Below, piece by piece: positions 9,213 to 61,785 of a DNA stretch of 64,000 nt. The DNA is from Thermoplasmatota archaeon (GTDB lineage: Archaea; Thermoplasmatota; Thermoplasmata; Thermoplasmatales; ARK-15): assembly GCA_031961865.1 (NCBI GenBank), contig JAVRLB010000001.1, positions 11,719 through 75,718 on the forward strand, in the 5' to 3' direction. Position 1 is the first letter of the stretch, and every line of letters begins with the position of its first letter. A program made the translations under genes and the position numbers. A model generated the notes under the pieces. It did no database searches. It had not been told where the DNA came from and was given only the letters and a program-made list of their open reading frames with translations.

Positions 9213-9351
9213 GATTCTCTCTTTTATCTTATTTATCTAATTGCAATATTACCCTTTAAATATTAACATAAATATGAGATCAAAACCATAAGATTTATAT
9301 TAATTAAGTCTTTATTGAATTTGACATTATAATTAATTAGGAGTAATTGTT

Positions 9352-29963: not shown

Positions 29964-31777
29964 TCTTTTTCACTTTTATCTTTGTACTCTGCATCAACGG
30001 TCTCATCTGTTTTTTTCTCTTCTTTGGGCCCTGCCTGCTGGTACATCGAAGCGCCAGCTTCCTGAATTTCTTTATTCAGTTTTTCAGAAGATTCTCTTAT
30101 TTTCTGATAATCTTTTGATTCAATTGCAGATTTCAGATCTTTGATTGCATCTTGAACCTTGTTTTTAGTTTCTTGTGGGATCTTGTCTCCATATTCATTT
30201 AATGTTTTTTCACTGGCATAAACCAGACTTTCAGCATTGTTAATCAGATCAATTTCTTCTTTTCTTTTCTTATCTTCTTCAGCAAATTTTTCTGCCTCTT
30301 TCTTCATCTTTTCAATTTCTTCTTTTGTCAGCTTGGTTGAAGCACTTATCGATATGCTTTTTTGTTTTCCGGTTGCTTTATCCTGGGCAGTAACATTCAG
30401 TATCCCATTTGCATCAATATCGAACGTTACTTCGATCTGTGGCACTCCTCTGGGAGCAGGCGGAATGCCTTCCAGATTGAACATACCTAAAGATACATTG
30501 TCTTTTGCTAACGTTCGCTCTCCCTGAACCACATGAATTGTGACTACAGTTTGAAAATCTGCAGCAGTAGAGAAAATTTGAGATTTTTTTGTCGGGATAG
30601 TTGTGTTTGCTGGAATTAAAGGTGTAGCAACGCCTCCGAGTGTCTCGACGCTCAAGGTTAGAGGTGTGACATCTAACAGTACAATATCTTTTACTTCTCC
30701 TGCAAGAACTCCGCCCTGCAATGCAGCGCCCAATGCTACGCATTCCATTGGATCCACGCCACGCTCAATTTTCTTGCCTAAAAACTCCTCTATAACTTTC
30801 TGCACGATCGGCATTCTTGTAGGTCCACCTACAAATATTACTTTATCTATGTCTTTTTTATCCAACTTTGCATTCTCTAAAGCATTAGTAATGGAAATTT
30901 TAGTTTTCTCTACAATTGGAGATACAAGCTCTTCTAGCTGGGCACGTGTAATCTGCATTACAAGATGTTTTGGTCCATCTTGATTTGCAGTGATATATGG
31001 TAAATTTACTTCTGTGGCAGTTGAAGTTGATAGCTCAATCTTCGCTTTTTCAGCAGCATCTCTGATTCTTATAAAAGCACTTTTATCTTTTTTGAGATCT
31101 ATTCCTTCTTTCTTTTTAAAATCATTGATTATAAAATCTATAATTGCGTTATCCATATCTGTGCCGCCTAGTTGAGTGTCTCCAGCAGTGGATAACACTT
31201 CAAACACTCCACCACCAAATTCCATGATTGTTACATCGAGTGTTCCTCCACCGAAGTCGTAAACAAGTATTTTCTGCTCTTTTTCCAATTTATCTATACC
31301 ATAGGCCAATGAAGCTGCAGTAGGCTCATTAATTATTCTGACTACTTCAAGTCCAGCAATCGCGCCAGCATCTTTAGTAGCCTGCCTCTGGTTATCATTA
31401 AAATATGCTGGTACAGTGATTACTGCTTTACTTACTTTTTCTCCCAAAAATGATTCAGCATCTTTCTTAATCTTTTGAAGAATAAATGCGGATATCTGTT
31501 GAGGAGTATACTCTTTCCCAAATATTTTATATTTATAATCTGTTCCCATCTTTCTTTTTGCAGCATATATTGTGCCTTCAGGATTTAAAAGTGCCTGCCT
31601 TCTTGCAGGTTCTCCGACCAGTAACTGTCCATCTTTTGTAAAAGCCACATAACTTGGAAAGGCTTTGCCACCTATGCTTATTCCTTCAGCGCTAGGAATT
31701 ATAGTTGGTTTTCCAGATATAATAACTGCTGCAGCTGAATTGCTCGTTCCTAGATCTATTCCTAATATTTTTTCCAT
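29960..31777 (-). CDS. dnaK: molecular chaperone DnaK (Hsp70)
   Basis: [27 protein letters not shown] signatures. 605 aa. ATGA-type overlap with dnaJ. Confidence 0.97.
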
Positions 31778-36370: not shown

Positions 36371-37231
36371 ATGCCACATCTGTTAAAATATGCGGATTCT
36401 AATGCAGATTTTGAAGAAGCAGAGTTTGTGATATTTGGAGTTCCGTTTGATGGAACTACTACATATCGTGGGGGCGCGAGATTTGCACCTAATGCGATCA
36501 GAGAAGCATCAATCAACATAGAATCTTTTATCTTTGAAAAAAAGTTTAGCATGAATAATGTAAAAATGCATGATATGGGTAATATGGAAGAAAAAGGATA
36601 TGTTGAGGATGTGATATCAGAGGTAGAGTTCTATGTTAATGATATTCTTGACAGATCTAAGTTTCCAATTATGCTGGGTGGAGAGCACTCTATAACCACA
36701 GGTATTGCAAAAGCACTTAAAGAGAGAGATGCAGCAATAGTTTTTTTAGACGCGCATCTGGACTTTAGGAAAGAATATCTGGGAGTAAAATATAGTCATG
36801 CATGCGTTGCAAGGCGCAGTTATGAACTTTTAGGAAACAATAGAACAGCAGCATTTGGAATAAGATCCATTTCTGAAGAAGAATACTATGAGGCATTAGA
36901 AAAAAAATATTTTTATATTTCTGCTTACAATTTCAGAATCCTTGGCTGGAAAAATGCCATTAATCAAATTTTAGAGAATATTTCCTCTAAAAAAATATTT
37001 TTGTCATTGGATATTGACGGTATAGATCCTTCATTTGCGCCAGCAGTAGCCACTCCCGAACCATACGGGTTAGATCCTTATGATGTGAAGCAGATAATAG
37101 ATTATCTTGGTGATAGGTTGATTGGTGCAGATATTGTTGAGATCTCTCCGCATTATGATCAAGGCAATACTGCAATGCTTGGGGCAAGATTGTTGCAGGA
37201 AATAGTATCTTCTAAAAATATGAAAAAATAG
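36371..37231 (+). CDS. speB: agmatinase (arginase/ureohydrolase family)
   Basis: Mn-binding motifs GGEHSIT, LDAHLDF and SLDIDGIDPSFAP. Directly downstream of aIF5A. Confidence 0.85.
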   Translation: MPHLLKYADSNADFEEAEFVIFGVPFDGTTTYRGGARFAPNAIREASINIESFIFEKKFSMNNVKMHDMGNMEEKGYVEDVISEVEFYVNDILDRSKFPIMLGGEHSITTGIAKALKERDAAIVFLDAHLDFRKEYLGVKYSHACVARRSYELLGNNRTAAFGIRSISEEEYYEALEKKYFYISAYNFRILGWKNAINQILENISSKKIFLSLDIDGIDPSFAPAVATPEPYGLDPYDVKQIIDYLGDRLIGADIVEISPHYDQGNTAMLGARLLQEIVSSKNMKK

Positions 37232-40623: not shown

Positions 40624-41646
40624 ATGAACATGAACATAATTTTGAAAAATGTGCAGGAGGTAATAACCAGAAAGGAGCTTGAAGATCTAGCAGAAAGAGG
40701 TACTAAAATTAAGGGATATGTTGGTTTTGAGCCGTCAGGGTTTGTGCATTTAGGAACTGGGTTGATATGTGGCAACAAAATCAAGGATTTAGCAGATCAG
40801 GGAATTGATGTTACAGTATTGCTTGCAGACTGGCACGCATACATCAATGATAAACTGGGCGGGGACATGGACAAGATCAGGATTTCTGGGGAGTATATGA
40901 AGCAATCTTTCTTAAAGTTAGGTGTACCAAGCTCTGTAAAATTCATATTTGCGGATGAGCTTGTAAACCGAAGAGAATACTGGGAAAAAGTGATCAAGGT
41001 TGCTAAAAGGACATCTTTAAAGAGGGTAAAAAGAGCTATGAGCATAATGGGCAGAAAGGAGGATGAAGCAGATTTAGATTCATCAAAGATAATTTATCCA
41101 TTTATGCAGGTTGCAGATATATTTGATCTGGATGTGGATATAGCATATGGTGGCATGGATCAGAGGCATGCGCATATGCTTGCAAGAGAAATTGCACCAA
41201 AGCTTAACTATAAAGTTCCTATTGCAATACATACACCTTTATTACCCGGCTTGCAGGGAACTGGAAGAATGGATCCTGTGGAATCCAAGATGAGCAAAAG
41301 CAAGCCAAACAGCAGTATAAATGTTCATGAAAATGCAGATATCATACGTGCAAAGATCTCGAAAACATACTGCCAAGAGAAGGATATTATAAATAATCCG
41401 CTCTTGAAAATTGCGGAGTATATTATATTTCCATATTATAAAGACAGCATCACGATAAAAAGGGAAGAAAAATTTGGGGGGGATATTACAGTTAGCAGTT
41501 ATAGAGAACTAGAGCAAAATTTTGCAGAAGGATTGATTCATCCGCTAGACCTCAAAAACTCAATTGCAGATGAGCTTATTGAGATATTAAAGCCTACGAG
41601 CGAGTATTTTTCGAAACATACAGATCTGATAGAAGGAATAAAGTGA
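40624..41646 (+). CDS. tyrS: tyrosine--tRNA ligase (archaeal type)
   Basis: Collinear with my memory of M. jannaschii TyrRS: GFEPSG.VHLG, LLADWHAY, YPFMQVADI, GGMDQRHAHMLARE, KMSKSKP, EKFGGDITVSSYRELE, HPLDLKN. Confidence 0.93.
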   Translation: MNMNIILKNVQEVITRKELEDLAERGTKIKGYVGFEPSGFVHLGTGLICGNKIKDLADQGIDVTVLLADWHAYINDKLGGDMDKIRISGEYMKQSFLKLGVPSSVKFIFADELVNRREYWEKVIKVAKRTSLKRVKRAMSIMGRKEDEADLDSSKIIYPFMQVADIFDLDVDIAYGGMDQRHAHMLAREIAPKLNYKVPIAIHTPLLPGLQGTGRMDPVESKMSKSKPNSSINVHENADIIRAKISKTYCQEKDIINNPLLKIAEYIIFPYYKDSITIKREEKFGGDITVSSYRELEQNFAEGLIHPLDLKNSIADELIEILKPTSEYFSKHTDLIEGIK

Positions 41647-41651
41647 TAAAT

Positions 41652-42584
41652 ATGCTTGAAAAAGTTGTTAAAGATATTAAATTAAGTGAAGACATGAAAC
41701 TATCTGAGCTTCTAGAGTATTATAAGGAATCTGGAGGTTTTACATCAGCAAAGCTTGGCACTGCCGAAGAAATATTGATCAAAATGTTTAAGGACAAGAG
41801 CACCACAAAGTTTCTATCCTTTCCTGCAGATATAATATCGACAGGAACAAGAGGAGTTATTAAAGAGCTTGTAAAACGAAAACTGGTAGATGTTATTATC
41901 ACTACCTGTGGCACGCTTGACCATGATCTTGCCAGGTCTTTTAAGCCATATTATCAGGGCTCATTTATGCTTGATGATGCCATATTGTATCAGAAAGGCA
42001 TAAACAGGTTAGGCAATGTTCTTATCCCTAATGATAGTTATGGGATAATTATAGAATCAAAAATGCAGGAATTTTTAGAAAATTTAACTACTACAAAAAA
42101 AACGTGGGGTGTGCGAGAACTGGTTTACGAGCTTGGTAAATATATCAATGATAAAGACTCTATACTTTACTGGGCAAGCAAGAACAACATACCAGTATTT
42201 GTGCCGGGAATAACTGATGGTGCAGTAGGGTCTCAGCTCTGGAGCTACTGGGAACGAAACCGGGATTTTAGCATTGACTTGCTGCTAGATGAGCATGAAC
42301 TATCTGATTTTATTTTCAGTGCAAAAAAAACCGGTGCGCTGATGATAGGAGGTGGCATCTCCAAGCATCATACAATCTGGTGGAACCAGTTTAAAGGTGG
42401 ACTGGACTATGCAGTATATATTACTACTGCTGAAGAATATGATGGATCTCTTTCTGGTGCAAGGTTAAGAGAAGCGGTATCATGGGGCAAAATTAAAGCA
42501 AAAGCAAAGTATATAACAGTTGAAGGAGATGCAACTATAATATTGCCGATATTAGTCGGCTCAATAATTTCAAAATTAAGGTGA
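41652..42584 (+). CDS. dys: deoxyhypusine synthase
   Basis: ITTCGTLDHD, GITDGAVGSQ, IGGGISKHH, EAVSWGKI motifs. ATG at 41652 is 6 nt after the tyrS stop. Confidence 0.9.
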   Translation: MLEKVVKDIKLSEDMKLSELLEYYKESGGFTSAKLGTAEEILIKMFKDKSTTKFLSFPADIISTGTRGVIKELVKRKLVDVIITTCGTLDHDLARSFKPYYQGSFMLDDAILYQKGINRLGNVLIPNDSYGIIIESKMQEFLENLTTTKKTWGVRELVYELGKYINDKDSILYWASKNNIPVFVPGITDGAVGSQLWSYWERNRDFSIDLLLDEHELSDFIFSAKKTGALMIGGGISKHHTIWWNQFKGGLDYAVYITTAEEYDGSLSGARLREAVSWGKIKAKAKYITVEGDATIILPILVGSIISKLR

Positions 42585-42589
42585 TAAAG

Positions 42590-43363
42590 ATGGTCAAAAT
42601 AGGTATAATAGGTGGTTCTGGAATAACAGAGATGTTTAAGCCAGAAAGCACAAAGAAGATAGATACGCCTTACGGGCCTCCGTCTGGCGATCTAGAGATA
42701 GGCGAGATTAACGGTGTGAAAATAGCCTTTTTGCAGAGACATGGCAAAGGGCATAGAATTCCACCGCACAAGATAAACTATAAGGCGAACATATATGCGA
42801 TGTACAGCGAGGGTGTTGAAAAGGTCATAGCCATAAGCGCAGTAGGATCATTGAAAGAAGAGTACAGGCCTGGAGAGCTAGCTTTTCCAGATCAGTTCAT
42901 AGATTTTACAAAATCGAGAGAATACACATATTTTAATGGCCCAACAGTTGCACACATTTCTATGGCAGATCCATTCTGCGAGTCATTGAGGAGCATTGTT
43001 ATAAGCTCTGCTCAGAAACTGAATATTAATTCACATAAAGCTGGTACATACATATGTATAGAAGGGCCAAGATTTTCAACAAGAGCAGAATCTAAAATGT
43101 TCCGAAATTTTGCAGATTTAATAGGAATGACTTTAGTGCCAGAAATAAATTTAGCAAGAGAGCTTGGCATGTGCTATTTATCTATTGCAACGATAACAGA
43201 TTATGATGTATGGGCTGAAAAGCCAGTAACTGCAGGCGAGGTAACGAAAGTTGTTAAAGAAAATGAGTTTAAGGTGAAAAACATACTTAATGATTCTATA
43301 AAAGCTATTAATAATGATAATTCCTGTGACTGCAAAAAAGATATAAACATTGCAAAAATGTAG
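42590..43363 (+). CDS. mtnP: S-methyl-5'-thioadenosine phosphorylase
   Basis: IGIIGGSG, FLQRHGKGHRIPPHKINYKANI, GMTLVPE, ATITDYD motifs of the MTAP/PNP family. Confidence 0.9.
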   Translation: MVKIGIIGGSGITEMFKPESTKKIDTPYGPPSGDLEIGEINGVKIAFLQRHGKGHRIPPHKINYKANIYAMYSEGVEKVIAISAVGSLKEEYRPGELAFPDQFIDFTKSREYTYFNGPTVAHISMADPFCESLRSIVISSAQKLNINSHKAGTYICIEGPRFSTRAESKMFRNFADLIGMTLVPEINLARELGMCYLSIATITDYDVWAEKPVTAGEVTKVVKENEFKVKNILNDSIKAINNDNSCDCKKDINIAKM

Positions 43364-48452: not shown

Positions 48453-49106
48453 ATGATTAAAGGAATAATTTTTGATATAGATGGCACCATTTTAGATTCA
48501 TTTGAATCTATTTACCTTTCTCTATCAAATATACTTAAAAAATACAATGTTGAGGATCTAACCAGGGAAGAACTAAAGGCAATGATGGATTATATGTCAT
48601 TTGAAGATATAGTCTTAAATTTAGCAAAGAAATATAATATTCTTGATTCTGAAAAAATATTAGAGTTGAGTAAAGATTATATAGCATATTTTAAAAAATC
48701 GATAAAGGTTGATTCAAAGATCTTTCCAGGAATAGATTATGCTATTAAACTACTATCAGAAAGATTCAAATTAGGAATAATTTCTTACAATCCAAAAGAT
48801 ATTGTTAAAATACAATTATTAGATTTTGACCTATTAAAATATTTTCCATTTGTAATGGGGTATGAAGATGTAAATGGTCACAAAAGAGCTGGAATTATAG
48901 AATTTTCCAGATATTATGGCATAGATCTAAAAGAGATCGTATATATTGGGGATCAGCCGAAGGATATAATAGAAGCACGGATGGCTGGAGCAAGATCTAT
49001 AGCAGTTACTTACGGAGTCAGTAAATATGATACATTGTTAAAAGAGCATCCAGATTATTTTGCAGATAATGCAGAAGAGCTCCTTGAAATTATTCAAAAA
49101 AATTGA
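48453..49106 (+). CDS. HAD-superfamily phosphatase (phosphoglycolate phosphatase-like)
   Basis: Motif I IIFDIDGTILDS. Motif IV YIGDQPKDI. 217 aa. Confidence 0.85.
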   Translation: MIKGIIFDIDGTILDSFESIYLSLSNILKKYNVEDLTREELKAMMDYMSFEDIVLNLAKKYNILDSEKILELSKDYIAYFKKSIKVDSKIFPGIDYAIKLLSERFKLGIISYNPKDIVKIQLLDFDLLKYFPFVMGYEDVNGHKRAGIIEFSRYYGIDLKEIVYIGDQPKDIIEARMAGARSIAVTYGVSKYDTLLKEHPDYFADNAEELLEIIQKN

Positions 49107-49255: not shown

Positions 49256-50617
49256 ATGGTTTTTAATCCCAAATTTATAAAAAAAGAGGAGATTGAAAAG
49301 TTATTAACTGAAGTTACACAGGAAGAATTTTATAATGCGAGGGCAAAATCACTTACACCTTTGAAAGATACTATTTTATTAAAAGGAGAAGGTCCTTACG
49401 TAACTGATATAAATGGCAATAAATATCTAGATATGACAGCTCAAGCATGGACATTGAATTCAGGGTATTTAAATGAGGATATAATGTACAGTGTTTATTC
49501 ACAGATGCACTATCTTACCCATGTAAGATATGGGTACCCAACCATACCAAGAATAAAACTGATAAATACTTTAACAGAGCTTTTTGGATTTGAGAAAGTA
49601 GCTTTCAACAATGAAGGCGGTGGTTTAGCAATAGAAGCAGCAATGAAACTCGCGATGGTAAACAGGCCAGGCAAAAAAGTTTTTATTATGAGTTATAGAG
49701 GATACCATGGCTCTACATTGGCGACCATACCTGCCGGAAACCCTCTGCCATCAGCAATAAGATTTGACGGATTTGGTGCTGAGCATTTTAAAAAGATACC
49801 TTATCCATATTGTTATAGATGCCCTTTTAACAAACAATTTGGAGAATGCGAGTTTGAATGCTTGACTTCTTTAGAAAATTTATTGATGTATGATAACAAT
49901 AATGATATTGCGGCCCTGATCATAGAACCTATGCAAGGGCCTGGTGGCCAAATACCTTCACCTCCAGGATATTTAGAGAGACTGAAAAAGATAGTTCATG
50001 AAAATGATCTACTTTTAGTATTTGATGAATCTCAAACAACTTTCGGGAGAATAGGTAGATGGTCAGCTTCAGAATACTATAATGTAAAGCCAGATATAAT
50101 GACCACTACAAAGGCTTTAGGTGGGGGTTTTCCGCTTGGTGCAATTCTTGCAACAAAAGATTTGAGCGGTTTTACGGAAGGAGAAGAACATACCACATTC
50201 GGGAGTGATCCGGTGTTATTTGCCGCATCTCTAGCAAGCATAGAAGTAACCAAGAGAATGAAGCTCTTAGAAAATTCGGAAAAGGTTGGAGGATATATTT
50301 TGAAGAGACTTAATGAAATGAAAGAAAATCATAAGCTTATTGGGGATGTTAGAGGTGTAGGATTATTTATTGGTATTGAATTGGTAAAGGATAAAAAAAC
50401 AAAGATTCCTGCCACTGAAGAGACCGAGCTTATTATACATTACGCGTATGAGAAAAAAGTGATATTTGACTTTTCAATGCCACAAATTAGCAGGAACGAA
50501 TTTTCATTCAGGAACGTACTGAAAATTAAGCCTCCGCTGATAATCACTGAAGAAGAAGCAGATCACGCTTTGAATGTTTTTGAAGATAGCCTGACAAGAG
50601 TGGAGCGGGAGGAATAA
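49256..50617 (+). CDS. class-III (omega) PLP-dependent aminotransferase
   Basis: FNNEGGGLAIEAAMKLA, LVFDESQTTFGRIGRW, PLP-lysine context TTTKALGGGFPLGA. 453 aa. Confidence 0.9.
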   Translation: MVFNPKFIKKEEIEKLLTEVTQEEFYNARAKSLTPLKDTILLKGEGPYVTDINGNKYLDMTAQAWTLNSGYLNEDIMYSVYSQMHYLTHVRYGYPTIPRIKLINTLTELFGFEKVAFNNEGGGLAIEAAMKLAMVNRPGKKVFIMSYRGYHGSTLATIPAGNPLPSAIRFDGFGAEHFKKIPYPYCYRCPFNKQFGECEFECLTSLENLLMYDNNNDIAALIIEPMQGPGGQIPSPPGYLERLKKIVHENDLLLVFDESQTTFGRIGRWSASEYYNVKPDIMTTTKALGGGFPLGAILATKDLSGFTEGEEHTTFGSDPVLFAASLASIEVTKRMKLLENSEKVGGYILKRLNEMKENHKLIGDVRGVGLFIGIELVKDKKTKIPATEETELIIHYAYEKKVIFDFSMPQISRNEFSFRNVLKIKPPLIITEEEADHALNVFEDSLTRVEREE

Positions 50618-50621
50618 AACA

Positions 50622-52121
50622 ATGACTGAAGATCAGATTTTAGTCTTTGATATAGGCACAAGCAAGATCAAAGCAGGCGTTTATAATGAGCAAGGGATAA
50701 AAATTGCAGAGTCAGCAACGGAAATGGATATAAATTATCCTGCCGAAGGATGGGCTGAACAAGATCCAGAAAAATGGATGCATAATATAATAGAATTGTC
50801 AAAAGAGATTTTGAAGAAGATGGAGCAAGTAAACATAAAAGGTATTGGAGTTACTGGGCAGTTGATGGGACTAGTGCCTGTGAATATGGACATGAAACAT
50901 TTAAGAAATGCAATAATCTGGTTAGATTCAAGGGCAGAGCAGGAAGCAGAAGAGATACTATCCAGCATTTCAGTTATGGATTTTCTTGAGATGACTGGAG
51001 GAATACCAACCGGAAAAGATGTGATAGCCAAAATTTTATGGTTAAAAAACCATGAGCCTCAAATTTTTGATAAAACCAGGTATTTCTTAGATGTGAAAGA
51101 TTATATACTTTATAGATTGACCAACAATATAGTAACGGATATCAGCACTGCAGCTGTGAGGGGGCTGATAGATGTAAGGATTAAAAACTGGTCAGAAACG
51201 CTATGTAACATAATTGGTACAACACCAGATAAACTGCCAGTTATTACCGAAACTAAGAGTGTTATAGGCAATTTGAAAAATGAGAAGCTGTTGAATCTTG
51301 GGATTAGCAAAGAGGTAGAAGTTATAAATGGAGCAGGTGACGCGTTTGTTACACCATTTGGCGCAGGTGCAGTAAGAGATGGAAAAGCACATTATTACCT
51401 TGGTACTTCGAGCTGGGTCAGCACACATGTTTCAGATTCTCTAATGAATGAGGATAGAGGAATTGGAAGTGTTTATTCTGCAATTCCAGGAAAATGGCTT
51501 TTAATCTCAGAATCGGAAAGTGCAGGATCTTGTCTCGACTGGTTTATGTCAAATATATATAAAGCAAAAGATGACAAAGCTTACAGGGAAGTTAATGAGA
51601 GAGTATTAAAATCTAAACCGGGATCAAAAAACCTTATTTTCCTGCCATGGTTATATGGAGAGCGATCGCCAGTTCTGGATGTATATGCACGGGGAGGGTT
51701 TGTAAATCTGAGCTTGGACCATAATATAAACGATCTTTCTAGGTCTGTGATGGAAGGTGTTGCAATGAATGCAAGGTGGATGGTTGATGGAATCTCTGAA
51801 ACAGGCATTAATTTTCCATCCATAAATGTGGTAGGTGGGGGAGCGAAGAGTGAAGTATGGATGCAAATTCTATCAGATGTATTAAAGATTGAAGTGAATA
51901 GGGTAGCAGATCCTCAAAATGTCACTCTTAGGGGAAGCGCAATGCTAACATTGCTAGGATTAAATTACTTTAAAAATGTTGAAGAAAGTGAGAGCATAAT
52001 AAAGATTGATACAACATTTGTTCCAAATCCGGATAATGCAAATGTATATGATAAGCTGTATGAAAACTATAAGAAAATATATTCTTCATTAAAGGAAATA
52101 TTTGAGAATCTGAATAGTTAG
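50622..52121 (+). CDS. FGGY-family carbohydrate kinase (xylulokinase/gluconokinase-like)
   Basis: ILVFDIGTSKIKAGVY, GWAEQDPEKW, IIWLDSRA, VVGGGAKSEVWMQILSDV. GGAGG SD upstream, 4 nt after the aminotransferase stop. Confidence 0.9.
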   Translation: MTEDQILVFDIGTSKIKAGVYNEQGIKIAESATEMDINYPAEGWAEQDPEKWMHNIIELSKEILKKMEQVNIKGIGVTGQLMGLVPVNMDMKHLRNAIIWLDSRAEQEAEEILSSISVMDFLEMTGGIPTGKDVIAKILWLKNHEPQIFDKTRYFLDVKDYILYRLTNNIVTDISTAAVRGLIDVRIKNWSETLCNIIGTTPDKLPVITETKSVIGNLKNEKLLNLGISKEVEVINGAGDAFVTPFGAGAVRDGKAHYYLGTSSWVSTHVSDSLMNEDRGIGSVYSAIPGKWLLISESESAGSCLDWFMSNIYKAKDDKAYREVNERVLKSKPGSKNLIFLPWLYGERSPVLDVYARGGFVNLSLDHNINDLSRSVMEGVAMNARWMVDGISETGINFPSINVVGGGAKSEVWMQILSDVLKIEVNRVADPQNVTLRGSAMLTLLGLNYFKNVEESESIIKIDTTFVPNPDNANVYDKLYENYKKIYSSLKEIFENLNS

Positions 52122-52136
52122 AGGTTGGTGATTTAG

Positions 52137-53492
52137 ATGAATAAAGAGTATTTGAAAAAATTGTATGGTGAAGAGAATTTAGTTGAAAAATTATCCGATC
52201 CCGAATCTTTGCCTGAAGGCATAGATAAAGAAGATTATGTGATAGGGACATATCTATTAAAAACAAAGAGAGCATGGAAAATAAGAGAGCTTTCAAAAGC
52301 GCTGGCAATAGAACAATCAACAGGAACATGGCTGCCGGTACCGGGTGAAACTCCAGAAGTGAGAATGCAGTCTGTCGCAAAGGTAATAGGAATCTATGAA
52401 TTACCAGATTATGAAACTGAAGTTCCAGAGGATGTTAAAGAAAGAACCTATGTTGTAAGAATAGCATTTCCATTCATAAATTTTGGCATGCAGATACCCA
52501 TGATGCTTTCTACAGTTGTGGGAAATATATCTCTTGCAGGGCAGATAAAAGTTCTGGACATAGAATTTCCAGAAAGTTTTGTAAAAGGCTTCAAAGGCCC
52601 AAAGTTCGGCATTGAGGGCATAAGAAAGCTTTTAAATGTGAAAGAAAGGCCTTTGTTATTAAACATGATCAAACCCTGCACTGGTTTTCCTCCGGATGTT
52701 GGTGCCAAATATTTCTATGAAGCAGCAAAAGGAGGTGTAGATATCATAAAGGATGATGAGTTGCTCGCAAACGCATCATTTAACAAGTTGGAAGATCGTA
52801 TTGTTAAATATATGGAAGCAGCTGACAGAGCCAGTTCTGAAAAAGGCGAGAAAACTCTCTACACAATTAACATAACAGATACATACCCGAAAATCATTGA
52901 AAATGCTGAAAAAGTGATTGAGCTCGGAGCTAACGCATTGATGGTAAATGTTTATACTGCTGGGTTTCCTGCCTTACAAGCACTGGCAGAGGATAGCAGC
53001 ATCAAAGTACCAGTATTAGCGCACATGGACTTTGCAGGAACTATGTATCAATCACCAGTGTATGGTGTTACTTCCCCTATAATTTTAGGGAAGTTACCGA
53101 GATTGGCTGGTGCGGACATGATGATCTTCCCTGCACCATATGGGAAGGCATTTTATCTTAAAGAAAAAGCCATAAGAACAGGAAGAGCAATGACTGACAT
53201 ATTCTATAATCTAAAGCCTACATTTCCTGCGCCAAGCGGTGGAATTGCACATCCAATGGTACCTGACATAATAAAAGATTTTGGGAAAGATGTGATCATA
53301 GCAGCTGGAGGAGCTATACATGGGCATTCTAACGGGCCGGCTGCTGGAGCCAGAGCTTTCAGAGCCATAATAGATGCAATAGTAAGTGGGAATACCCTTG
53401 ACAGTGTAGCGGAAGAAAATGCAGAAGTGGCAATGGCAATAGAAGACATGTTAAAGTCTATAAAAGAACTGAGAAAAATAGTAGGTGAATAA
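52137..53492 (+). CDS. RuBisCO large-subunit-like protein (form IV-like RLP)
   Basis: EQSTGTW, VVGNIS, RPLLLNMIKPCTG, GGVDIIKDDE, VLAHMD, PSGG and AGGAIHGH align to the RuBisCO large-chain motifs. K177, R295 and H327 equivalents are substituted. Confidence 0.85.
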   Translation: MNKEYLKKLYGEENLVEKLSDPESLPEGIDKEDYVIGTYLLKTKRAWKIRELSKALAIEQSTGTWLPVPGETPEVRMQSVAKVIGIYELPDYETEVPEDVKERTYVVRIAFPFINFGMQIPMMLSTVVGNISLAGQIKVLDIEFPESFVKGFKGPKFGIEGIRKLLNVKERPLLLNMIKPCTGFPPDVGAKYFYEAAKGGVDIIKDDELLANASFNKLEDRIVKYMEAADRASSEKGEKTLYTINITDTYPKIIENAEKVIELGANALMVNVYTAGFPALQALAEDSSIKVPVLAHMDFAGTMYQSPVYGVTSPIILGKLPRLAGADMMIFPAPYGKAFYLKEKAIRTGRAMTDIFYNLKPTFPAPSGGIAHPMVPDIIKDFGKDVIIAAGGAIHGHSNGPAAGARAFRAIIDAIVSGNTLDSVAEENAEVAMAIEDMLKSIKELRKIVGE

Positions 53493-53510: not shown

Positions 53511-53876
53511 ATGGTAAGTGTACCATCGTTTTTATTAAAAAAGTTGTATGTAAAAAATAGCCTGAAAAATACAGAAAATGGATTTCAGTTTGAGCTGAAA
53601 AATGTGCTTGCAGAAGCAACAATAATATCCGGGATAAAAATCTATCTGAATGACAAACCTATAGACCAGAAAAACATCTCTTTATCTGTTAGAGATAGCT
53701 CTATAAAATCAGAGGATATTAATATAGGCAATTCGATAAAATTCTCTGTAGGAAATTCTGTTATAGTGAAGGTTACAGATAAACCATTAACACCATCACA
53801 GTACAAGATAGATATAAAGACTGAATCCAAAGAATTTGGAGAAATTGCTTTCTCTGTCCAAGATTCTGTCGCATGA
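53511..53876 (+). CDS. 121-aa protein of unknown function, operon-internal
   Basis: GAGGTGA SD 7 nt upstream of ATG 53511. The stop overlaps the MFS start (ATGA). Predicted all-beta, with no motif recognised. Confidence 0.55.
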   Translation: MVSVPSFLLKKLYVKNSLKNTENGFQFELKNVLAEATIISGIKIYLNDKPIDQKNISLSVRDSSIKSEDINIGNSIKFSVGNSVIVKVTDKPLTPSQYKIDIKTESKEFGEIAFSVQDSVA

Positions 53877-55048
53877 AAACTAAATTTTCAGTTACTTTTA
53901 TTTTTTTCTCGTACCTTTTATTAGTTGCATTAAACCAATTTTTATGGATCAATTTTGTGACATTGAGCAACAATGTGGCATCTGCATATCAGGTGTCGGT
54001 ATTCGATGTGGGGTTACTGGCAATAGTTTTTCCGATTGTATATGTTATTGTTTCGATACCATCAGGTATTATAATAGATAAAAAAGGCTATAAGTTTAGC
54101 CTGTTAGTCGGTGCATTGTTCATGACCATTTTTTCAGTCGTCAGAATTGCACAAAGCACCTATTTATTTCTGTTAGTTGGGCAAATTGGAATTGCCATTG
54201 CACAACCGTTTTTTAATAACAGTGTCTCTAAACTTGCAACTTCTGAGTATTCTCCAGAAAAAGCGCCTATTATTATAGGGTTAGGATCGCTAGCAATATT
54301 TGTTGGTGTAGCTCTCGGAATGATTTTACCACCAGTAATGATCATGTATATGAGCATACAAAAAATTGTATACGCCACGACAATAGTATCTGTAATAATA
54401 TTTTTCATATTCTTAATATCTTTGATAATGATAGGCAAAACAAAGGAGATAAAGAGCGAGACAAAACTCAATTTTTTAAAGATAGTGAAAATAAGACAAA
54501 TATTAATTTTTGCAATAATAGCATTTGTGGGAATGGGAATTTTTAATGGTATGCTGACCTGGATACAGCCTATTCTTACACATTTCAATTTCAGTGATAT
54601 ACAGATAGGAATTATCGGGCTTGCTATAGTAGTTGCAGGAGTTTTCGGGAGCGTCATAATACCCGGAATGGTCACTAAATTCCACAAAAGAAAGATTTTC
54701 ATCTATCTTGCATTTGCAGTTTCTACCCCCATTTTATTGATATTCGTATTTGTATCTAATTTTTATTTGCTGGTTACCATAAGCGCATTGCTCGGGTTCT
54801 TTATGCTAGGTGCATTTCCACTTTTGATTGACTGGGGGACTCTCTTATCAGGGGCTCAACTAGCAGGATCTACCACTTCACTGATTTGGTTATTGGGGCA
54901 GATTGGCGGATTTGTGATACCTATAGTAATGGGATCTGTCGGGCCGCTTTCTCCCAACAATGACTACTTTTATGCCCTATTATTCGATGGGGTAATGTTT
55001 ATAATACTATTCCCGCTGATAGTAAAGTTAAAAGAAACAGATAGCTAG
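53873..55048 (+). CDS. MFS transporter
   Basis: 391 aa, about 12 TM segments. Translationally coupled to the preceding ORF. Confidence 0.8.
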   Translation: MKTKFSVTFIFFSYLLLVALNQFLWINFVTLSNNVASAYQVSVFDVGLLAIVFPIVYVIVSIPSGIIIDKKGYKFSLLVGALFMTIFSVVRIAQSTYLFLLVGQIGIAIAQPFFNNSVSKLATSEYSPEKAPIIIGLGSLAIFVGVALGMILPPVMIMYMSIQKIVYATTIVSVIIFFIFLISLIMIGKTKEIKSETKLNFLKIVKIRQILIFAIIAFVGMGIFNGMLTWIQPILTHFNFSDIQIGIIGLAIVVAGVFGSVIIPGMVTKFHKRKIFIYLAFAVSTPILLIFVFVSNFYLLVTISALLGFFMLGAFPLLIDWGTLLSGAQLAGSTTSLIWLLGQIGGFVIPIVMGSVGPLSPNNDYFYALLFDGVMFIILFPLIVKLKETDS

Positions 55049-55824
55049 AGAATGATCTCCAAATCACCTGTCTTATGATCCCAATAATACTTGAATAAAC
55101 TGTTTATCCAATTTATCTCATTTTCTCTTTCTGCATAAAATGTGGTACTATAATCTATATCTCCATTTGAGAAAGGTATGTTGAATTCTCCACTGTTTTC
55201 GTCTACTAATATTGCCATCTCAACAGTATCAACAAATCTAACTCTGATCTTTCCACTTTTTTTATATTCAATGCTTTCCAAAACATCAAAAAACTCTTTT
55301 TTTGCATTTTTCTGAAGCAATAATCTAATCTCAACACCATGATCTATCATTTTTTTGATGGGCTCTATAAATGAGGTAAAAATTTCTTTGGTCATAATAT
55401 GCTCATACGTATGTGTTTTTCCAAATCTCTCTACTGTTAAATTAAATCCTTCAATGGTTCCTTCTACAATCTTGATGTTCTTTAGCTCTCCAATTGAAGC
55501 CTGAAATTGTATAGGTATAAAATTTAGATCATGATTTTCGAGAATGTAACTATAATTTTCCAAAAATAAAAAGTTTTGAAGTTGCGTCATAATGATCTTT
55601 CCACTGGTAGTAAGTGAATACTCATTTTTATTGCCTTTATAAATGATACCGGCAGAAATTAATCTTTTTAAATTTCTATAAATTTCTGGTTTCGGTATAC
55701 TCATGAACTTTGAAAAACCTTTTAAATTTTGATTATGGTAACTCAATATATTCAAAATCTTCAATCTATGCTCATTAGAAAGTTCAAATAAAAGTTCTGA
55801 TAAATCTATCTTGTTTTTATCCAT
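55045..55824 (-). CDS. ArsR-type wHTH regulator with a DUF1724-like (FilR1-type) C-terminal domain
   Basis: N-terminal LLFELSNEHRLKILNIL...IYRNLKRLISAGIIY, followed by ENHDLNFIPIQFQASIGELKNIKIV, as in DUF1724 regulators. Confidence 0.7.
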   Translation of the reverse strand: MDKNKIDLSELLFELSNEHRLKILNILSYHNQNLKGFSKFMSIPKPEIYRNLKRLISAGIIYKGNKNEYSLTTSGKIIMTQLQNFLFLENYSYILENHDLNFIPIQFQASIGELKNIKIVEGTIEGFNLTVERFGKTHTYEHIMTKEIFTSFIEPIKKMIDHGVEIRLLLQKNAKKEFFDVLESIEYKKSGKIRVRFVDTVEMAILVDENSGEFNIPFSNGDIDYSTTFYAERENEINWINSLFKYYWDHKTGDLEIIL

Positions 55825-55910: not shown

Positions 55911-57068
55911 TTATTGATGCGATTTATATTCCTCTTTTATCTTATCTAATAATGATGGCTGATTAAATATCTCCAGTATTGTATCTATTGAAACATCAAT
56001 TCCTTTTAAAAGGTTCTCTCCAGCTCTGTCTGGATTTACAGCCTCTCTGAAATCATCAGAATGCCCCGCTATGTTCTTAAATCCTACCTCAATATCTATA
56101 TGCCCCGTAGGAACTACATTGCTTACATTTGCTTCATCTGAACTTCCTGAAGCTAGACTCATATCTAAATCAAGATTTTCCGGTATTATATTCATTTTTT
56201 TGAGAGAGTTCTCAAGCAGTTTATTTATTACACGGTTCGTTTTATAATCTTCATAAAGAGGGGTAATTTCTTTGATATTAACTTCTACTCCATAGGCTTT
56301 ACCAATGTTCATAATCACATTTTCTACTTTATCCTCTAACACTCTAAGAAATGCACTAACACTGGATCTCAGATCTATTTCCATTACCGCTCTGTCAGGA
56401 ACGATGTTTGTTGCTTTACCTCCTTCCTTAAAAATCATGCCGATCACTGCATGTTTATCAATTTTTATCCAGCTTCTGAGATTATTAATGCCTATATAAC
56501 TCATTACCGCTGCATCAAGGGCATTTGCACCCTCTTGTGGAGAATCTGCCATATGTGCTGTTTTACCCTTAAATAATACCTCTAAAGTAATGTCTGCTAA
56601 TGTTTTTGAACCCACTCTCCATCGATCATCCGGATGCATACCGATCACAAAATCAATATCTCTAAATGCACCGTTTTTAACCATTATGGCTTTACTGCCT
56701 GCATATTTTCCCCTTCCCTCTTCTGCAGGTGTGCCAAACACTACTATTTTTCCTTTTTTAATTATATTGCTTAAGCGTATTGCAGTACCGTAAGCCCAAG
56801 CAGATATTAGATTATGACCACAAGAATGACCATTTGGAAGTGCATCGTATTCTGCTAAAAGGCCTACAACGGGAGCTCCTGCACCAAATTCTGCTCTAAA
56901 TGCAGTTTCCATACCAAGATAAGGATACTGAACATCAAAGCCATGTTTTCTAAAAGAATCTACCAGCAATTTAGATGATTTGAATTCTTCACTTCCTAGC
57001 TCTGCAAATTCATAAATTTTTTTAGAAATGCCCAAAATTTCATTCTTGAACATATCCTCATATTCCAT
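55911..57068 (-). CDS. M20-family amidohydrolase (M20D/AbgB-like)
   Basis: EYDALPNGHSCGHNLI, GTPAEEG, GMHP motifs. 385 aa. Confidence 0.85.
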   Translation of the reverse strand: MEYEDMFKNEILGISKKIYEFAELGSEEFKSSKLLVDSFRKHGFDVQYPYLGMETAFRAEFGAGAPVVGLLAEYDALPNGHSCGHNLISAWAYGTAIRLSNIIKKGKIVVFGTPAEEGRGKYAGSKAIMVKNGAFRDIDFVIGMHPDDRWRVGSKTLADITLEVLFKGKTAHMADSPQEGANALDAAVMSYIGINNLRSWIKIDKHAVIGMIFKEGGKATNIVPDRAVMEIDLRSSVSAFLRVLEDKVENVIMNIGKAYGVEVNIKEITPLYEDYKTNRVINKLLENSLKKMNIIPENLDLDMSLASGSSDEANVSNVVPTGHIDIEVGFKNIAGHSDDFREAVNPDRAGENLLKGIDVSIDTILEIFNQPSLLDKIKEEYKSHQ

Positions 57069-59302: not shown

Positions 59303-60844
59303 TTATAAGAATAATTTAGGTACGGTTTTATCCACGTTTACAACTAGCACTTTTGCATGATCTCCCTCTTTTAACCACTCTATTTCTTTCAGACTAGAAT
59401 CAGCGACCATTACATCTATTCCAAAGCCTTTAACTATATTTTCTATATTCAGGTTTAAAGTTAAATATTCTGCATTTTCAAGCTCCGGATAATAGCTTTT
59501 TGCAAAGCTCTTTAAAATATTATATCCTCCATTATTTAATACCAGATATTTTACTGGAAGATGATATTTTTTAGCAGTCCAAAGACTCTGGATCGTGTAC
59601 ATGAAAGCTCCATCTCCAACAATCTCCAGTACCTTGTCGCTGTGCATTGCTATTCCCAGAGATGCGGCGTTGGCCCAACCCAGTTGCCCGCTTTTTGCAG
59701 TAAAATAGCGGTTAGGTCCATATCCAAAAATGGAGCGAACAACATAAGATGAGGAAATTGACTCATCCACTATTGTATACCCTGCAAAGTATTTTTTTGC
59801 AATGTACATTACATAATTTACACCCATCACTTTTTTCTCCCTCGCTACCTTGTTTGCAAATGTGAGGTCATCTGGCCTTTTAAAATTAGATTTCTTAACT
59901 GCATGAATCTTAAATTCTTTTAAAAACAGTTTTGGGTTCATTATGTAAGAATCTCCAATCTTATTTGACACCCCAAAGCCAACGAATATTAGGTCTTTAC
60001 CAGGCAATGGTGGGGAAGGCAAATACGGATAAAATGTAAGGTCTCCTCCAACAAATAGTATTAGATCATGTTCTAAAAGCTTTAAGTTTATCAGCGTGGT
60101 TCCAGGCATAAGGTCTCCGGCATAAGAGCTATGATCAGAATTAAAAACGGACCTGCTGGACAGAGGCTCACCATAAACAGGGCAACCAGTATGCTCTGCT
60201 AATTCTTCAGCTTCTTTAAATGCATTAAACAGATCGATTTCATATCCAAATACAATTGCAGGGTTCCTGGCCGCATTAAACCTATTGGCAATCTGTAGCA
60301 CCGATTCGGTATCTAAAAGAGTATTCTCTGAATTATGCTCGACATATTTAGAATAGTTGGCATTCTGATCCATTACATCCATAGGAAACGACAAAAAAAC
60401 TGGGCCCATAGGCGGGGTCAGAGCTATATTTTTAGCTTTTTTTATGGCAGGGGCAATATCTTCAACATTGTGTACTTCATACTTATATTTAACGGCATCA
60501 CCTATTACTGAAATAAGATCATAGTACAGTATAGGGTCATAAAACATGTGTCTTGTATCTTGTTGTCCAGCAGTGATAACTATTGGTGTGTGATTCTGTT
60601 TAGCAGTATATATAAAAGCCATAGAATTTGCAAGACCAGGCAAAGTATGCAGATTTACCAGGCTTGCTTTTTTCAGGAACTGGGACCTTCCATCAGCCAT
60701 TCCTACAGCAATAGAATCATGGAGAGTAAGCACATAATCTTTCACATTTCTCAACATCGGCAATTCTGTAGTACCCGGGTTTCCAAATACAGGATACAAA
60801 TCTAAATCTTCCAGAACTCTGCTGAAAATTTCAGAGCCTTTCAT
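59303..60844 (-). CDS. thiamine-diphosphate-dependent enzyme (benzoylformate decarboxylase / acetolactate synthase-like)
   Basis: N-terminal VFGNPGTTELP (catalytic Glu). C-terminal TPP motif GDGAFMY...NNGGY. 513 aa. Confidence 0.85.
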   Translation of the reverse strand: MKGSEIFSRVLEDLDLYPVFGNPGTTELPMLRNVKDYVLTLHDSIAVGMADGRSQFLKKASLVNLHTLPGLANSMAFIYTAKQNHTPIVITAGQQDTRHMFYDPILYYDLISVIGDAVKYKYEVHNVEDIAPAIKKAKNIALTPPMGPVFLSFPMDVMDQNANYSKYVEHNSENTLLDTESVLQIANRFNAARNPAIVFGYEIDLFNAFKEAEELAEHTGCPVYGEPLSSRSVFNSDHSSYAGDLMPGTTLINLKLLEHDLILFVGGDLTFYPYLPSPPLPGKDLIFVGFGVSNKIGDSYIMNPKLFLKEFKIHAVKKSNFKRPDDLTFANKVAREKKVMGVNYVMYIAKKYFAGYTIVDESISSSYVVRSIFGYGPNRYFTAKSGQLGWANAASLGIAMHSDKVLEIVGDGAFMYTIQSLWTAKKYHLPVKYLVLNNGGYNILKSFAKSYYPELENAEYLTLNLNIENIVKGFGIDVMVADSSLKEIEWLKEGDHAKVLVVNVDKTVPKLFL

Positions 60845-61785
60845 CAGATCACCCTGAACTGTGGCTCTATGCCTTGACTGTATCTAAGCACATTAGATAT
60901 GGTTTCAGTCAAAAATCTTCTCTGGCTCTCTACTGTTACGCCTGCTATATGTGGAGAAAATAAGACATTATCTAACTTAAACAACTCGGATTCAAAATCA
61001 GGTGGCTCTTTGTTATAGACATCTAATCCTGCCTTTAATCCCTTGGTCTTAATCGCCTTTATTAGCGCTTTTTCATCAACGATCTCTCCGCGTGCGGTAT
61101 TAATAAAAATAGCACCATCTTTCATTATTGAAAATTCATGATCGGAAAACATATGTGTTGTCTTTTCTGTCAGTGGTAAGTGTAATGAGATTATGTCAGA
61201 GTTTTTTAGAAGGTATTCAAAATCAGTATATTGAATACCCAATTGTTCTTCGAGCTCTTCAGGTAACCTGTTAATATCATAATAGATTATACCTACCTCA
61301 AATGGAATTAGACGTTCTACTAGCTTTACGCCGATTTTTCCCATCCCTACAATTCCTACTACTTTTCCCATCAAATCCATAGATCCTGTGATTAAAGGCC
61401 AGTTTTTAGATCTAAGCTGATGATCTAAAAACTTAATATCTTTTAAGAATGCTAACATCATTGCGATTACATGTTCTGCCACGCTTTCTTTGTTGGCAAT
61501 GGGAATATTGCATAACATTATGTTCTTCTTTTTTAGATATTCCACATCTACATTATCATAACCTGTGCTAGCTACCTGTACAAATTTTAAATTTGGCATG
61601 CGGTCTATCATCTCTTTACGCACAGGAGTAAAAGTAGTAACTACAAGCACTTCGACATCACTTGATTCTAATGAACTGTCAGCAGTTATTTGCATTTCAG
61701 GTAATATTTGGGATACAGTAGCTTTAATTTCTTCAGTAGGTATAAAACTTGGAATTATTGTTAAATATTTCATAAATTTATACAT
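60844..61785 (-). CDS. D-isomer-specific 2-hydroxyacid dehydrogenase
   Basis: NAD motif GIVGMGKIGVKLVERL, NTARGEIVD, SPHIAG catalytic His. Overlaps the downstream TPP enzyme by 1 nt. Confidence 0.9.
   Translation of the reverse strand: MYKFMKYLTIIPSFIPTEEIKATVSQILPEMQITADSSLESSDVEVLVVTTFTPVRKEMIDRMPNLKFVQVASTGYDNVDVEYLKKKNIMLCNIPIANKESVAEHVIAMMLAFLKDIKFLDHQLRSKNWPLITGSMDLMGKVVGIVGMGKIGVKLVERLIPFEVGIIYYDINRLPEELEEQLGIQYTDFEYLLKNSDIISLHLPLTEKTTHMFSDHEFSIMKDGAIFINTARGEIVDEKALIKAIKTKGLKAGLDVYNKEPPDFESELFKLDNVLFSPHIAGVTVESQRRFLTETISNVLRYSQGIEPQFRVI

Follow-up and report, generated by a model that had tools for sequence, protein, structure and literature searches.

We analyzed a stretch of 64,000 nucleotides from a Thermoplasmatota archaeon (GenBank assembly GCA_031961865.1, contig JAVRLB010000001.1, positions 11,719 to 75,718), referred to below as the window, in which a gene for a RuBisCO-like protein (RLP, form IV) of 451 amino acids occupies positions 52137..53492 of the plus strand. 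The gene belongs to a plus-strand series that encodes, in this order, a haloacid dehalogenase (HAD)-superfamily protein, a class-III aminotransferase, an FGGY-family kinase, the RLP, a small protein and a major facilitator superfamily (MFS) transporter, after which a TrmB-like regulator is encoded convergently. From the aminotransferase through the transporter, the genes overlap or are separated by at most 18 nucleotides, while 149 nucleotides separate the HAD and aminotransferase genes. The ends of the RLP reading frame were confirmed exactly (451 codons), and its ATG, which lies 15 nucleotides past the stop of the kinase gene, is preceded by a Shine-Dalgarno sequence (GGTGA) 6 nucleotides upstream. 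The protein was identified by Pfam, by alignments and by an AlphaFold2 model, with the matches to RuBisCO_large (PF00016, 5.9e-49) and RuBisCO_large_N (PF02788, 1e-10) both above their cut-offs. The G+C content of the window is 34.8%. Contigs of two NCBI assemblies encode an identical protein, and a Thermoplasmata metagenome-assembled genome encodes one with 96% identity, which places the host among the uncultured Thermoplasmata archaea. As detailed below, the RLP belongs to the known RLP category, and its clade combines a distinct, fixed active-site signature with a conserved operon that matches no characterized RLP system.

Residues are numbered according to the spinach large subunit RbcL, the sequence used being 100% identical over 475 amino acids to PDB entries 8ruc and 1ir1. 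The register was taken from a MAFFT alignment that combined the RLP and spinach RbcL with twelve relatives and two PDB sequences of the MtnW type. It was reproduced when the RLP and spinach were compared separately by BLASTP (28% identity, E-value 5e-33). The residues that are kept, with the spinach position followed by that of the RLP, are E60 (E59), T65 (T64), W66 (W65), N123 (N130), K175 (K179), P176 (P180), K201 (K205), D203 (D207), E204 (E208), H294 (H296), K334 (K337), S379/G380/G381 (367-369) and G403/G404 (391/392). Three residues highlighted in an earlier first-pass annotation, which had been aligned by eye, are replaced, namely K177 by C181, R295 by M297 and H327 by I330, as are three that it overlooked, T173 (M177), H298 (A300) and L335 (A338). 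With the spinach numbering verified, its list of conserved residues proved correct in both alignments, and the equivalents of K177, R295 and H327 are still absent, so that the by-eye register stands. In RuBisCO, the carbamate on K201, together with D203 and E204, holds Mg2+ and supplies the base, with K175 and H294 as acid/base partners. T65, G381, G403 and G404 are ligands of the C1 phosphate of ribulose 1,5-bisphosphate (RuBP), adjoining the carbonyl, and R295, H298 and H327 are ligands of the C5 (distal) phosphate. In the sequence alignment, the carbamate/metal site of the RLP (K201, D203 and E204, with K175 and H294) and its proximal phosphate site are intact.

The AlphaFold2 model of the RLP (pLDDT 89.7, pTM 0.89) can be superposed with similar quality on MtnW (39% identity), a Chlorobium RLP (31%) and form III enzymes (about 30%), and the superposition on MtnW and form III RuBisCO, which the first-pass annotation had suggested as a check, gave TM-scores of 0.83-0.92. 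The N-terminal segment of about 30 amino acids that the same annotation considered atypical of large subunits turned out to be ordinary: E60 is residue 59 of the RLP, so that 58 residues precede it, as compared with 59 in spinach. The N-terminus thus has the usual length of a large subunit, and only in comparison with MtnW is it longer, by about 31 amino acids. About 15 residues (MNKEYLKKLYGEENL) are specific to the Thermoplasmata sub-clade, and the motif that follows them, ESLPEG(I/V)D..E.Y, is conserved across the clade. Loop 6 has a form III-like length, with 29 residues between K334 and S379 as compared with 28-31, although its flanks differ (PAPYGKA in the RLP and GTVVGKL in RuBisCO). An alignment gap of 11+4 residues after K334 relative to spinach, common to the RLP and MtnW, was considered as an RLP-specific deletion and rejected, since form III-like sequences are equally short. 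The gap reflects a form I insertion and, as form III-like lengths match that of the RLP, is uninformative on RLP membership.

By its residues, the protein is assigned to the form IV RuBisCO-like proteins and not to the form III carboxylases. Five canonical active-site positions are substituted, or six if L335 is included, and the closest solved relatives are themselves RLPs. The RuBP site is incomplete throughout the clade, with M297, A300, I330, C181 and M177 at the positions in question. Form III RuBisCOs such as those of Thermococcus kodakarensis (1geh/3a12) and Pyrococcus horikoshii (2cwx) share the fold (TM-score 0.83-0.90) at about 30% identity and are identical to the RLP at E60, T65, W66, N123, K175, K201, D203, E204, H294, K334, S379-G381 and G403/G404. 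They differ at T173M, K177C, R295M, H298A, H327I and L335A, and nucleotide-salvage partner genes are absent from the recurrent neighbors of the RLP. In essence, the RLP departs from a form III enzyme at K177 and T173, in its distal-phosphate pocket and on either side of loop 6. The RLP scores 270.7 bits on the form III model TIGR03326, for which the cut-off is 497.45, and the Pfam families of AMP phosphorylase, ribose-1,5-bisphosphate isomerase and phosphoribulokinase were not found among the recurrent neighbors of the family. The first-pass argument against a form III carboxylase is thus borne out by the model score, by the lost distal ligands and by the neighbors.

The conservation of these residues was examined in a family alignment of 33 sequences with 55-96% identity to the RLP. 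While 97 of the 451 positions (21.5%) are invariant in this alignment, E59, N130, K179, K205, D207, E208, H296 and K337 are all among them, an outcome with a probability of about 5e-6 by chance. The proximal-phosphate residues T64, G368, G369, G391 and G392 are invariant as well, and S367 is present in 32/33 sequences. The replacements are equally consistent, with M177 and M297 invariant, C181 in 32/33 sequences and position 330 always occupied by Val or Ile. Such conservation marks the residue pattern as a selected signature, and not as decay or chance. In spinach numbering, the signature reads E60, N123, M173, K175, C177, K201, D203, E204, H294, M295, A298, I/V327 and K334, and with few exceptions it is shared by all members of a large clade (54-96% identity) found in anaerobic archaea and bacteria. 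The hosts, as named by the sources, include Thermoplasmata, Theionarchaea, Methanofastidiosa, Hadarchaeales, Caldisericia and Chloroflexi/Anaerolineae, the last with the complete Anaerolineales genome CP070814.1 as an example. When metagenome contigs were matched by pattern, 576 of 600 matches proved to encode relatives.

To place the clade among its relatives, an exhaustive HMMER search of cluster representatives was used, which yielded 2137 relatives, and the active-site signature was tabulated for 96 full-length ones. In a neighbor-joining tree, the RLP clade forms a tight cluster apart from the MtnW-like sequences and from those with a RuBisCO signature. It should be noted that this is a rough distance tree, which supports clustering but not branching order. 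G60, K123, P295, L327 and S334 characterize the MtnW-like sequences, which group separately, and sequences with the full RuBisCO signature form another group, in both the table and the tree. The lineages around the clade (43-53% identity) keep E60, N123, K175 and K334 and vary at 295, 298 and 327; some of them retain K177 and one (P0133) also retains R295. In the databases, members of the clade are named 2,3-diketo-5-methylthiopentyl-1-phosphate enolase (JGI) or, in part, ribulose 1,5-bisphosphate carboxylase (NCBI/nr). By the residue and cut-off tests given here both names are wrong, likely as the result of systematic mis-annotation. A full-text literature search returned no paper on the clade or its operon, Tabita's minor groups (IV-AMC, IV-Aful, IV-GOS) being outside the comparison.

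The gene neighborhood was studied in 88 non-redundant family loci, including the window, which were collected from genome and metagenome contigs and are designated by L-numbers where needed. Neighbors were scored by clustering and seeded tblastn, and statistics refer to the 42 well-flanked loci that have at least 3.5 kb upstream and at least 2 kb downstream of the gene. An FGGY kinase lies within 6 kb of the RLP gene in 34 of these 42 loci, and in 23 it is directly adjacent on the same strand; such linkage is seen in Thermoplasmata, Hadarchaeales and Chloroflexi/Anaerolineae, among other hosts. Of the same 42 loci, 20 encode a class-III aminotransferase and 8 a saccharopine-dehydrogenase-like NAD(P) protein, thus 28 one or the other, and the two never occur together. 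Transporters (MFS or a DUF401/TIGR00529 membrane protein) follow the RLP in a minority of the other loci. Leaving the Thermoplasmata aside, the RLP-linked kinases share about 61% identity among themselves, and all those tested fall below the cut-off of the XylB model TIGR01312 (380.25), as with the kinases of L007 (329.6) and L009 (322.4), while a true XylB (L093) scores 606.9; these kinases thus form an FGGY subfamily of their own. In some Chloroflexi-type loci (L027), a gene of 462 amino acids stands between the kinase and the RLP, but as it encodes a coiled-coil insertion it was rejected as a pathway component. This conserved FGGY-kinase operon, which the first-pass annotation did not mention, is the strongest clue to what the RLP does. 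From the recurrent neighbors we infer a common denominator, namely a keto-sugar phosphate made by the FGGY kinase, an RLP acting on that product, and a further enzyme for the interconversion of a carbonyl group and an amine or alcohol.

Five sister RLP lineages that share the E60/N123/K334 signature were inspected, and four of them repeat this theme with other parts. In P0125 (47% identity), the order is a GntR regulator, an iron-type alcohol dehydrogenase, the RLP, a zinc-type alcohol dehydrogenase, an FGGY kinase and a sugar ATP-binding cassette (ABC) transporter. P0122 (51%) has an amino-acid-type ABC transporter, the small protein, the RLP, an FGGY kinase, a class II aldolase, an Rrf2 protein and a class-III aminotransferase. 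P0137 (44%) has a 2-hydroxyacid dehydrogenase, a ComB-like phosphatase, the RLP, a class I/II aminotransferase, an FGGY kinase and a HAD protein. P0133 (45%), which keeps K177 and R295, is accompanied by a zinc-type alcohol dehydrogenase and a TIM-barrel protein of the AP_endonuc_2 family, with no kinase, and P0124 (48%), on a short contig, by a SorC-type sugar-binding regulator only. Within the clade itself, class II aldolases are found in 5/88 loci, in one of which (L044) the aldolase is in the operon, in the order aldolase, aminotransferase, kinase, RLP and MFS transporter. These aldolases score best on models of ribulose-1-phosphate aldolase, fuculose-phosphate aldolase and L-ribulose-5-phosphate 4-epimerase, in each case below the cut-off, and lower on MtnB (177 compared with 84), which points to ketose-phosphate intermediates. 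At L083, the gene immediately upstream of the RLP (7518-9863, minus strand) encodes a protein of 781 amino acids in which a class II aldolase-family domain is joined to a HemL-like class-III pyridoxal phosphate (PLP) domain. Read as a "Rosetta stone" protein on the basis of its domains, the fusion links an aldolase step with an aminotransferase or aminomutase step.

In the window, the FGGY-family carbohydrate kinase (499 amino acids, 50622..52121, plus strand; Pfam FGGY_N and FGGY_C) has XylB as its best NCBIfam match (352.7, under the cut-off), and E. coli xylulokinase 2itm and the gluconate kinase 3gbt are its closest PDB entries. It is the presumed maker of the RLP substrate. Four nucleotides upstream lies the class-III (fold-type I) PLP aminotransferase-family gene (453 amino acids, 49256..50617, plus strand; Pfam Aminotran_3, 1.7e-82), whose product reaches no NCBIfam equivalog cut-off and whose PDB neighbors are generic omega-transaminases, racemases and phospho-lyases; a search for its substrate by way of homologues returned only generic names. 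It is about 53% identical to its homologues at other family loci, to which the homologue beside the sister P0122 is 51-57% identical. Just beyond the regulator of the operon is an M20 amidohydrolase gene (55911-57068, minus strand), and in an Asgard locus (L104, 8564-9817) a 51%-identical homologue of the aminotransferase adjoins an M20 peptidase, away from any RLP. These M20 neighbors hint at a common amino compound as a possible substrate of the aminotransferase subfamily. Downstream of the small-protein gene, the MFS transporter (391 amino acids, 53873..55048, plus strand; Pfam MFS_1), whose start overlaps the small-protein stop by 4 nucleotides, is the presumed importer of the substrate. 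The TrmB-like transcriptional regulator (259 amino acids, 55045..55824, minus strand), convergent with the operon and identified by a weak NCBIfam match to TrmBL2 (2.1e-5), has homologues that are likewise convergent with the operon in the related Thermoplasmata loci, as well as in L014 and L017, and is a candidate sugar-responsive regulator. The HAD-superfamily (HAD-IA) phosphatase-like protein (217 amino acids, 48453..49106, plus strand; Pfam HAD_2, 1.1e-31) is conserved at this place in no loci other than L001, L002, L091 and L092, all of Thermoplasmata, and is a possible member of the operon in Thermoplasmata only.

The small all-beta protein encoded after the RLP (121 amino acids, 53511..53876, plus strand; PF25653, 'HMG-CoA_red_N') starts at ATG 53511 behind a GGTGA Shine-Dalgarno sequence, as in the database gene calls, and not at the GTG 53502 given in the open reading frame list. 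In Foldseek, its AlphaFold2 model (pLDDT 92.7) is most similar to C-glycoside deglycosidase beta subunits (8qvc_B, 9m3b_B and 7dre_B; TM-score 0.68-0.74, E-value 5e-7 to 7e-6, probability 1.00), and its homologues carry weak matches to PF19906 (CGDB). The likeness to these subunits (DgpB, DfgB, CarC-type) lies in the predicted beta-sandwich fold, whereas sequence identity is only 6-17%. Such subunits partner a metal-dependent TIM-barrel enzyme, and the catalytic domain of the RLP is also a metal-dependent TIM barrel; an alpha subunit of the AP_endonuc_2 (xylose-isomerase-like) family was found neither in the window operon nor in the Pfam-annotated family loci. The small protein adjoins the RLP in 13/88 family loci, in three gene orders, and also accompanies the sister P0122. 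In Theionarchaeal loci it stays beside the RLP where there is no kinase nearby, which would fit an accessory subunit of the RLP. In the loci L093-L096 (in L093 at 4285-5814 and 6001-6360), a 37%-identical homologue directly follows a genuine bacterial xylulokinase (TIGR01312, 607 compared with 380), with no RLP within the 6 kb flank on each side. As judged from its predicted structure and its neighbors, the small protein is a candidate accessory subunit, either of the RLP or of the kinase.

Taken together, we favor, at a probability of roughly 0.45, a reading in which the RLP is an Mg-carbamate enolizing enzyme that would act on a keto-sugar monophosphate supplied by the kinase and carry out an isomerization, epimerization or tautomerization. 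As the carbamate/metal and proximal phosphate sites are intact, a monophosphorylated 2-keto substrate is reasonable, and as the distal site consists of Met, Ala and Ile/Val together with Cys177 and Met173, resembling the pocket for the methylthio tail in MtnW, a substrate with an uncharged tail is the most economical choice. In such a pathway, the transporter would import a sugar-like compound, the aminotransferase (elsewhere the saccharopine-dehydrogenase-like protein or an alcohol dehydrogenase) would interconvert an amine or alcohol with a carbonyl, and the FGGY kinase would yield the keto-sugar monophosphate. The proximal site of the RLP (T65, S379-G381 and G403/G404) would then bind the phosphate, the 2-keto/3-hydroxy (or diketo) group would be placed on the Mg2+ held by carbamylated K201, D203 and E204, and the apolar former distal pocket (M173, C177, M295, A298 and I/V327) would house the uncharged tail. 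The carbamate would take a proton to give a metal-bound enediolate, reprotonation would be aided by K175, H294 or K334, and the product would enter central metabolism. The analysis itself establishes the residues and fold as well as the clade and its gene linkage; the order of these steps, the substrate class and the outcome of enolization are what we infer from them. According to a review, the carbamate-Mg enediolate step is common to all characterized RLPs. A comparable use of a kinase is known from the RLPs of D-apiose catabolism (the 3-oxo-isoapionate-4-phosphate decarboxylase OiaX and a transcarboxylase/hydrolase), where a dedicated sugar or sugar-acid kinase reportedly makes the phosphorylated keto substrate and directly precedes the RLP in the pathway. 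There, however, the kinase belongs to DUF1537 and not to the FGGY family and the RLPs are separate lineages, and our RLP scores only 189.7 on the OiaX model NF042437 (cut-off 700).

Several points weigh against this reading and should be considered along with it. The prediction of substrate and function draws on sequence, predicted structure and gene context. The nearest relatives of the kinase, XylB, GntK and LsrK, phosphorylate the hydroxyl distal to the carbonyl, and a 1-phosphate beside the keto group is thus not assured. The window kinase is, moreover, only about 36% identical to the kinases of other loci (L007, L009, L026 and others), as compared with about 57% for the RLP and about 53% for the aminotransferase, which suggests that the Thermoplasmata kinase may have been displaced by an FGGY paralogue or may have strongly diverged. 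In Theionarchaeal loci, the operon is reduced to the RLP and the small protein, without a kinase nearby, and five well-flanked loci have none of the partners. The aminotransferase has homologues of about 51% identity away from any RLP, for instance in the Asgard genome. Finally, the retained E60, N123 and K334 are needless for a simple proton shuffle and hint at chemistry beyond isomerization.

The RLP could instead be a methionine-salvage-like enolase, an MtnW-type tautomerase of a 2,3-diketo-alkyl 1-phosphate (2,3-diketo-5-methylthiopentyl-1-phosphate or its 5-deoxy analogue) in anaerobes that recycle by-products of S-adenosylmethionine, which we consider unlikely. MtnW/YkrW enzymes (2oek/2oem; 2zvi of B. 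subtilis) are its closest solved relatives (best match, E-value 4e-89, 39% identity, TM-score 0.83-0.92), and they share with it K175, K201, D203, E204, H294, the proximal-phosphate site and the apolar distal pocket. One MtnW model comes close to recognizing the RLP (NF007095, PRK09549.1, 386.2 compared with a cut-off of 409), while the second is well below (TIGR03332, 347.8 compared with 513.6), and both are thus missed. In contrast to MtnW, which has Gly and Ser at positions 60 and 334, the RLP keeps E60 and K334, and also P176. The position of N123 in RuBisCO is occupied by Lys in 17/17 MtnW-like representatives, including 2oek (Geobacillus kaustophilus) and 3fk4 (Bacillus cereus). This Lys, K98 in Geobacillus MtnW, is reportedly the general base, but is Asn in the RLP and in every clade member. 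As to gene context, the neighbors recall the mtn set by family, namely a kinase, a class II aldolase (as MtnB), a HAD protein (as MtnX) and aminotransferases (in the role of MtnE), yet such analogues are sporadic, with the aldolase in few loci and better matched by fuculose-phosphate and ribulose-1-phosphate models than by MtnB, and the HAD protein in Thermoplasmata only. The kinase is of the FGGY type and not MtnK. Linkage to mtnK, mtnA, mtnB, mtnX or mtnD was not observed, the recurrent neighbors being the FGGY kinase, the aminotransferase or saccharopine-dehydrogenase-like protein, the small protein and transporters, with no gene resembling MtnA or MtnD among them. A bona fide methylthioadenosine (MTA) phosphorylase is encoded 8.8 kb upstream in the window (42581-43363; 412 compared with a cut-off of 382). 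It was nonetheless rejected as a pathway partner, since the non-Thermoplasmata family loci then collected contain no homologue, and no MTA phosphorylase is linked to an RLP outside the Thermoplasmata.

A further alternative, which we hold to be improbable, is C-C chemistry on a monophosphorylated ketose by means of the retained E60, N123 and K334 triad. It could take the form of carboxylation with cleavage to 3-phosphoglycerate and a hydroxy-acid, of decarboxylation or transcarboxylation of a keto-acid phosphate, or of a retro-aldol reaction. The invariance of E60, N123, K175, K201, D203, E204, H294 and K334 is in its favor, as MtnW has lost E60, N123 and K334, and so are the form III-like length of loop 6 and the related lineages that grade towards true RuBisCO, with P0133 keeping K177 and R295 too. 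An aldolase is absent from most loci, hence the product must enter central metabolism directly, and the known RLPs, as reviewed, already include decarboxylases, transcarboxylases and an oxygenase. Against it, K177 and T173, universal in carboxylases, are replaced, the loop-6 flanks are unlike those of RuBisCO, the retained residues could merely bind a hydroxyl or carboxylate of the substrate, and the carboxylation of a ketose monophosphate by an RLP has no biochemical precedent. When the clade and the grade in E60/N123/K334 are read together in this manner, a carboxylase-type or other C-C reaction on a ketose monophosphate supplied by the FGGY kinase seems rather doubtful. As an example of such a reaction, a 5-deoxy- or 5-methylthio-pentulose 1-phosphate would give 3-phosphoglycerate and a hydroxy-acid that is then oxidized or transaminated. 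In that case, the RLP might form a heteromer with the small beta-sandwich protein as a subunit unrelated to RbcS. The claim of the first-pass annotation that the protein is an RLP of the enolase or isomerase type is supported in part. The form IV assignment and the kept carbamate/metal and proximal sites stand. "Enolase type" cannot mean MtnW, because of the Asn at the position of Lys98, the kept E60 and K334, and the two missed cut-offs. The choice of an isomerase or enolase, in turn, expresses a preference and not a demonstrated exclusion of C-C chemistry, because the residues of both enolization and carboxylation are retained and loop 6 has the form III length.

There is only a small chance, in our view, that the RLP is a 1,3-isomerase of 5-methylthioribulose-1-phosphate (or 5-deoxyribulose-1-phosphate) like that of Rhodospirillum rubrum, disposing of the carbon of MTA or 5'-deoxyadenosine via xylulose-5-phosphate analogues. 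This reaction type is known for RLPs, and the R. rubrum-type enzyme acts on a ketose 1-phosphate with an apolar tail via an enediolate, as proposed here. The apolar tail pocket, the intact proximal-phosphate site, the relation of the kinase to xylulokinases and the MTA phosphorylase in the same genome region would all be in keeping with it. The R. rubrum-type RLP nonetheless has a different gene context, and the sequence relation is distant as judged from the 378-amino acid DeepYkr-type chain 3qfw, which matches the RLP with an E-value of 1e-38, as compared with 4e-89 for MtnW. Further, no cupin/methylsulfurylase is among the recurrent neighbors, a phosphorylase route needs no FGGY kinase, and the transporters of the operon suggest that the substrate is imported. 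That the RLP is a genuine RuBP carboxylase of a divergent form III can practically be dismissed, since, for all its RuBisCO fold, complete carbamate/metal site and E60, N123 and K334, it has R295, H298, H327, K177 and T173 replaced in every clade member, falls far short of the form III model and has no nucleotide-salvage or phosphoribulokinase-type gene among the recurrent neighbors.

Some other features of the window were recorded. The MTA phosphorylase gene (plus strand) directly follows a deoxyhypusine synthase gene (41643-42584, plus strand), with an arginase/agmatinase-family gene (36371-37231, plus strand) a few kb upstream, and together they look like a polyamine/hypusine gene group. 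About 6 kb downstream of the RLP, on the opposite strand, a benzoylformate-decarboxylase-like thiamine diphosphate enzyme (59303-60844, minus strand) adjoins a D-2-hydroxyacid/phosphoglycerate-dehydrogenase-like protein (60844-61785, minus strand), a pair that is syntenic only in the related Thermoplasmata locus L001. A DDE-family (DDE_Tnp_1) transposase gene (21975-23327, minus strand) is separated by about 330 bp from a gene for tRNA-Lys(CTT) (21574-21649, plus strand) and may represent an insertion sequence or the edge of an integrated element. Two proteins of about 1000 amino acids (4417-7461 and 23655-26738, both plus strand), with only CARDB or sub-threshold CarboxypepD_reg-like matches near the C-terminus, are probably large surface proteins. 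A DnaK-DnaJ pair (28881-31777, minus strand) represents a bacterial-type Hsp70 system in an archaeal genome.

Only a few RLPs have an assigned reaction, and these include an enolase, an isomerase, a decarboxylase/transcarboxylase and an oxygenase, according to a review. The clade described here is large, with members in several phyla of both archaea and bacteria that live in anoxic habitats. As it keeps the residues of RuBisCO for enolization and CO2 addition and has lost the distal-phosphate site, the ancestral function of the superfamily and the origin of carboxylation become testable. The kinase-RLP operon provides an experimental handle, since identification of the kinase substrate would yield that of the RLP. 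Re-annotation affects metabolic reconstructions of Thermoplasmata, Theionarchaea, Hadarchaeales and Anaerolineae, in which these genes now stand for 'methionine salvage' or 'RuBisCO'. Were the graded C-C reading true, the clade would give anaerobic archaea and bacteria a new route of salvage or catabolism that depends on CO2 but not on oxygen, and would represent a living intermediate between RLPs and true RuBisCO.

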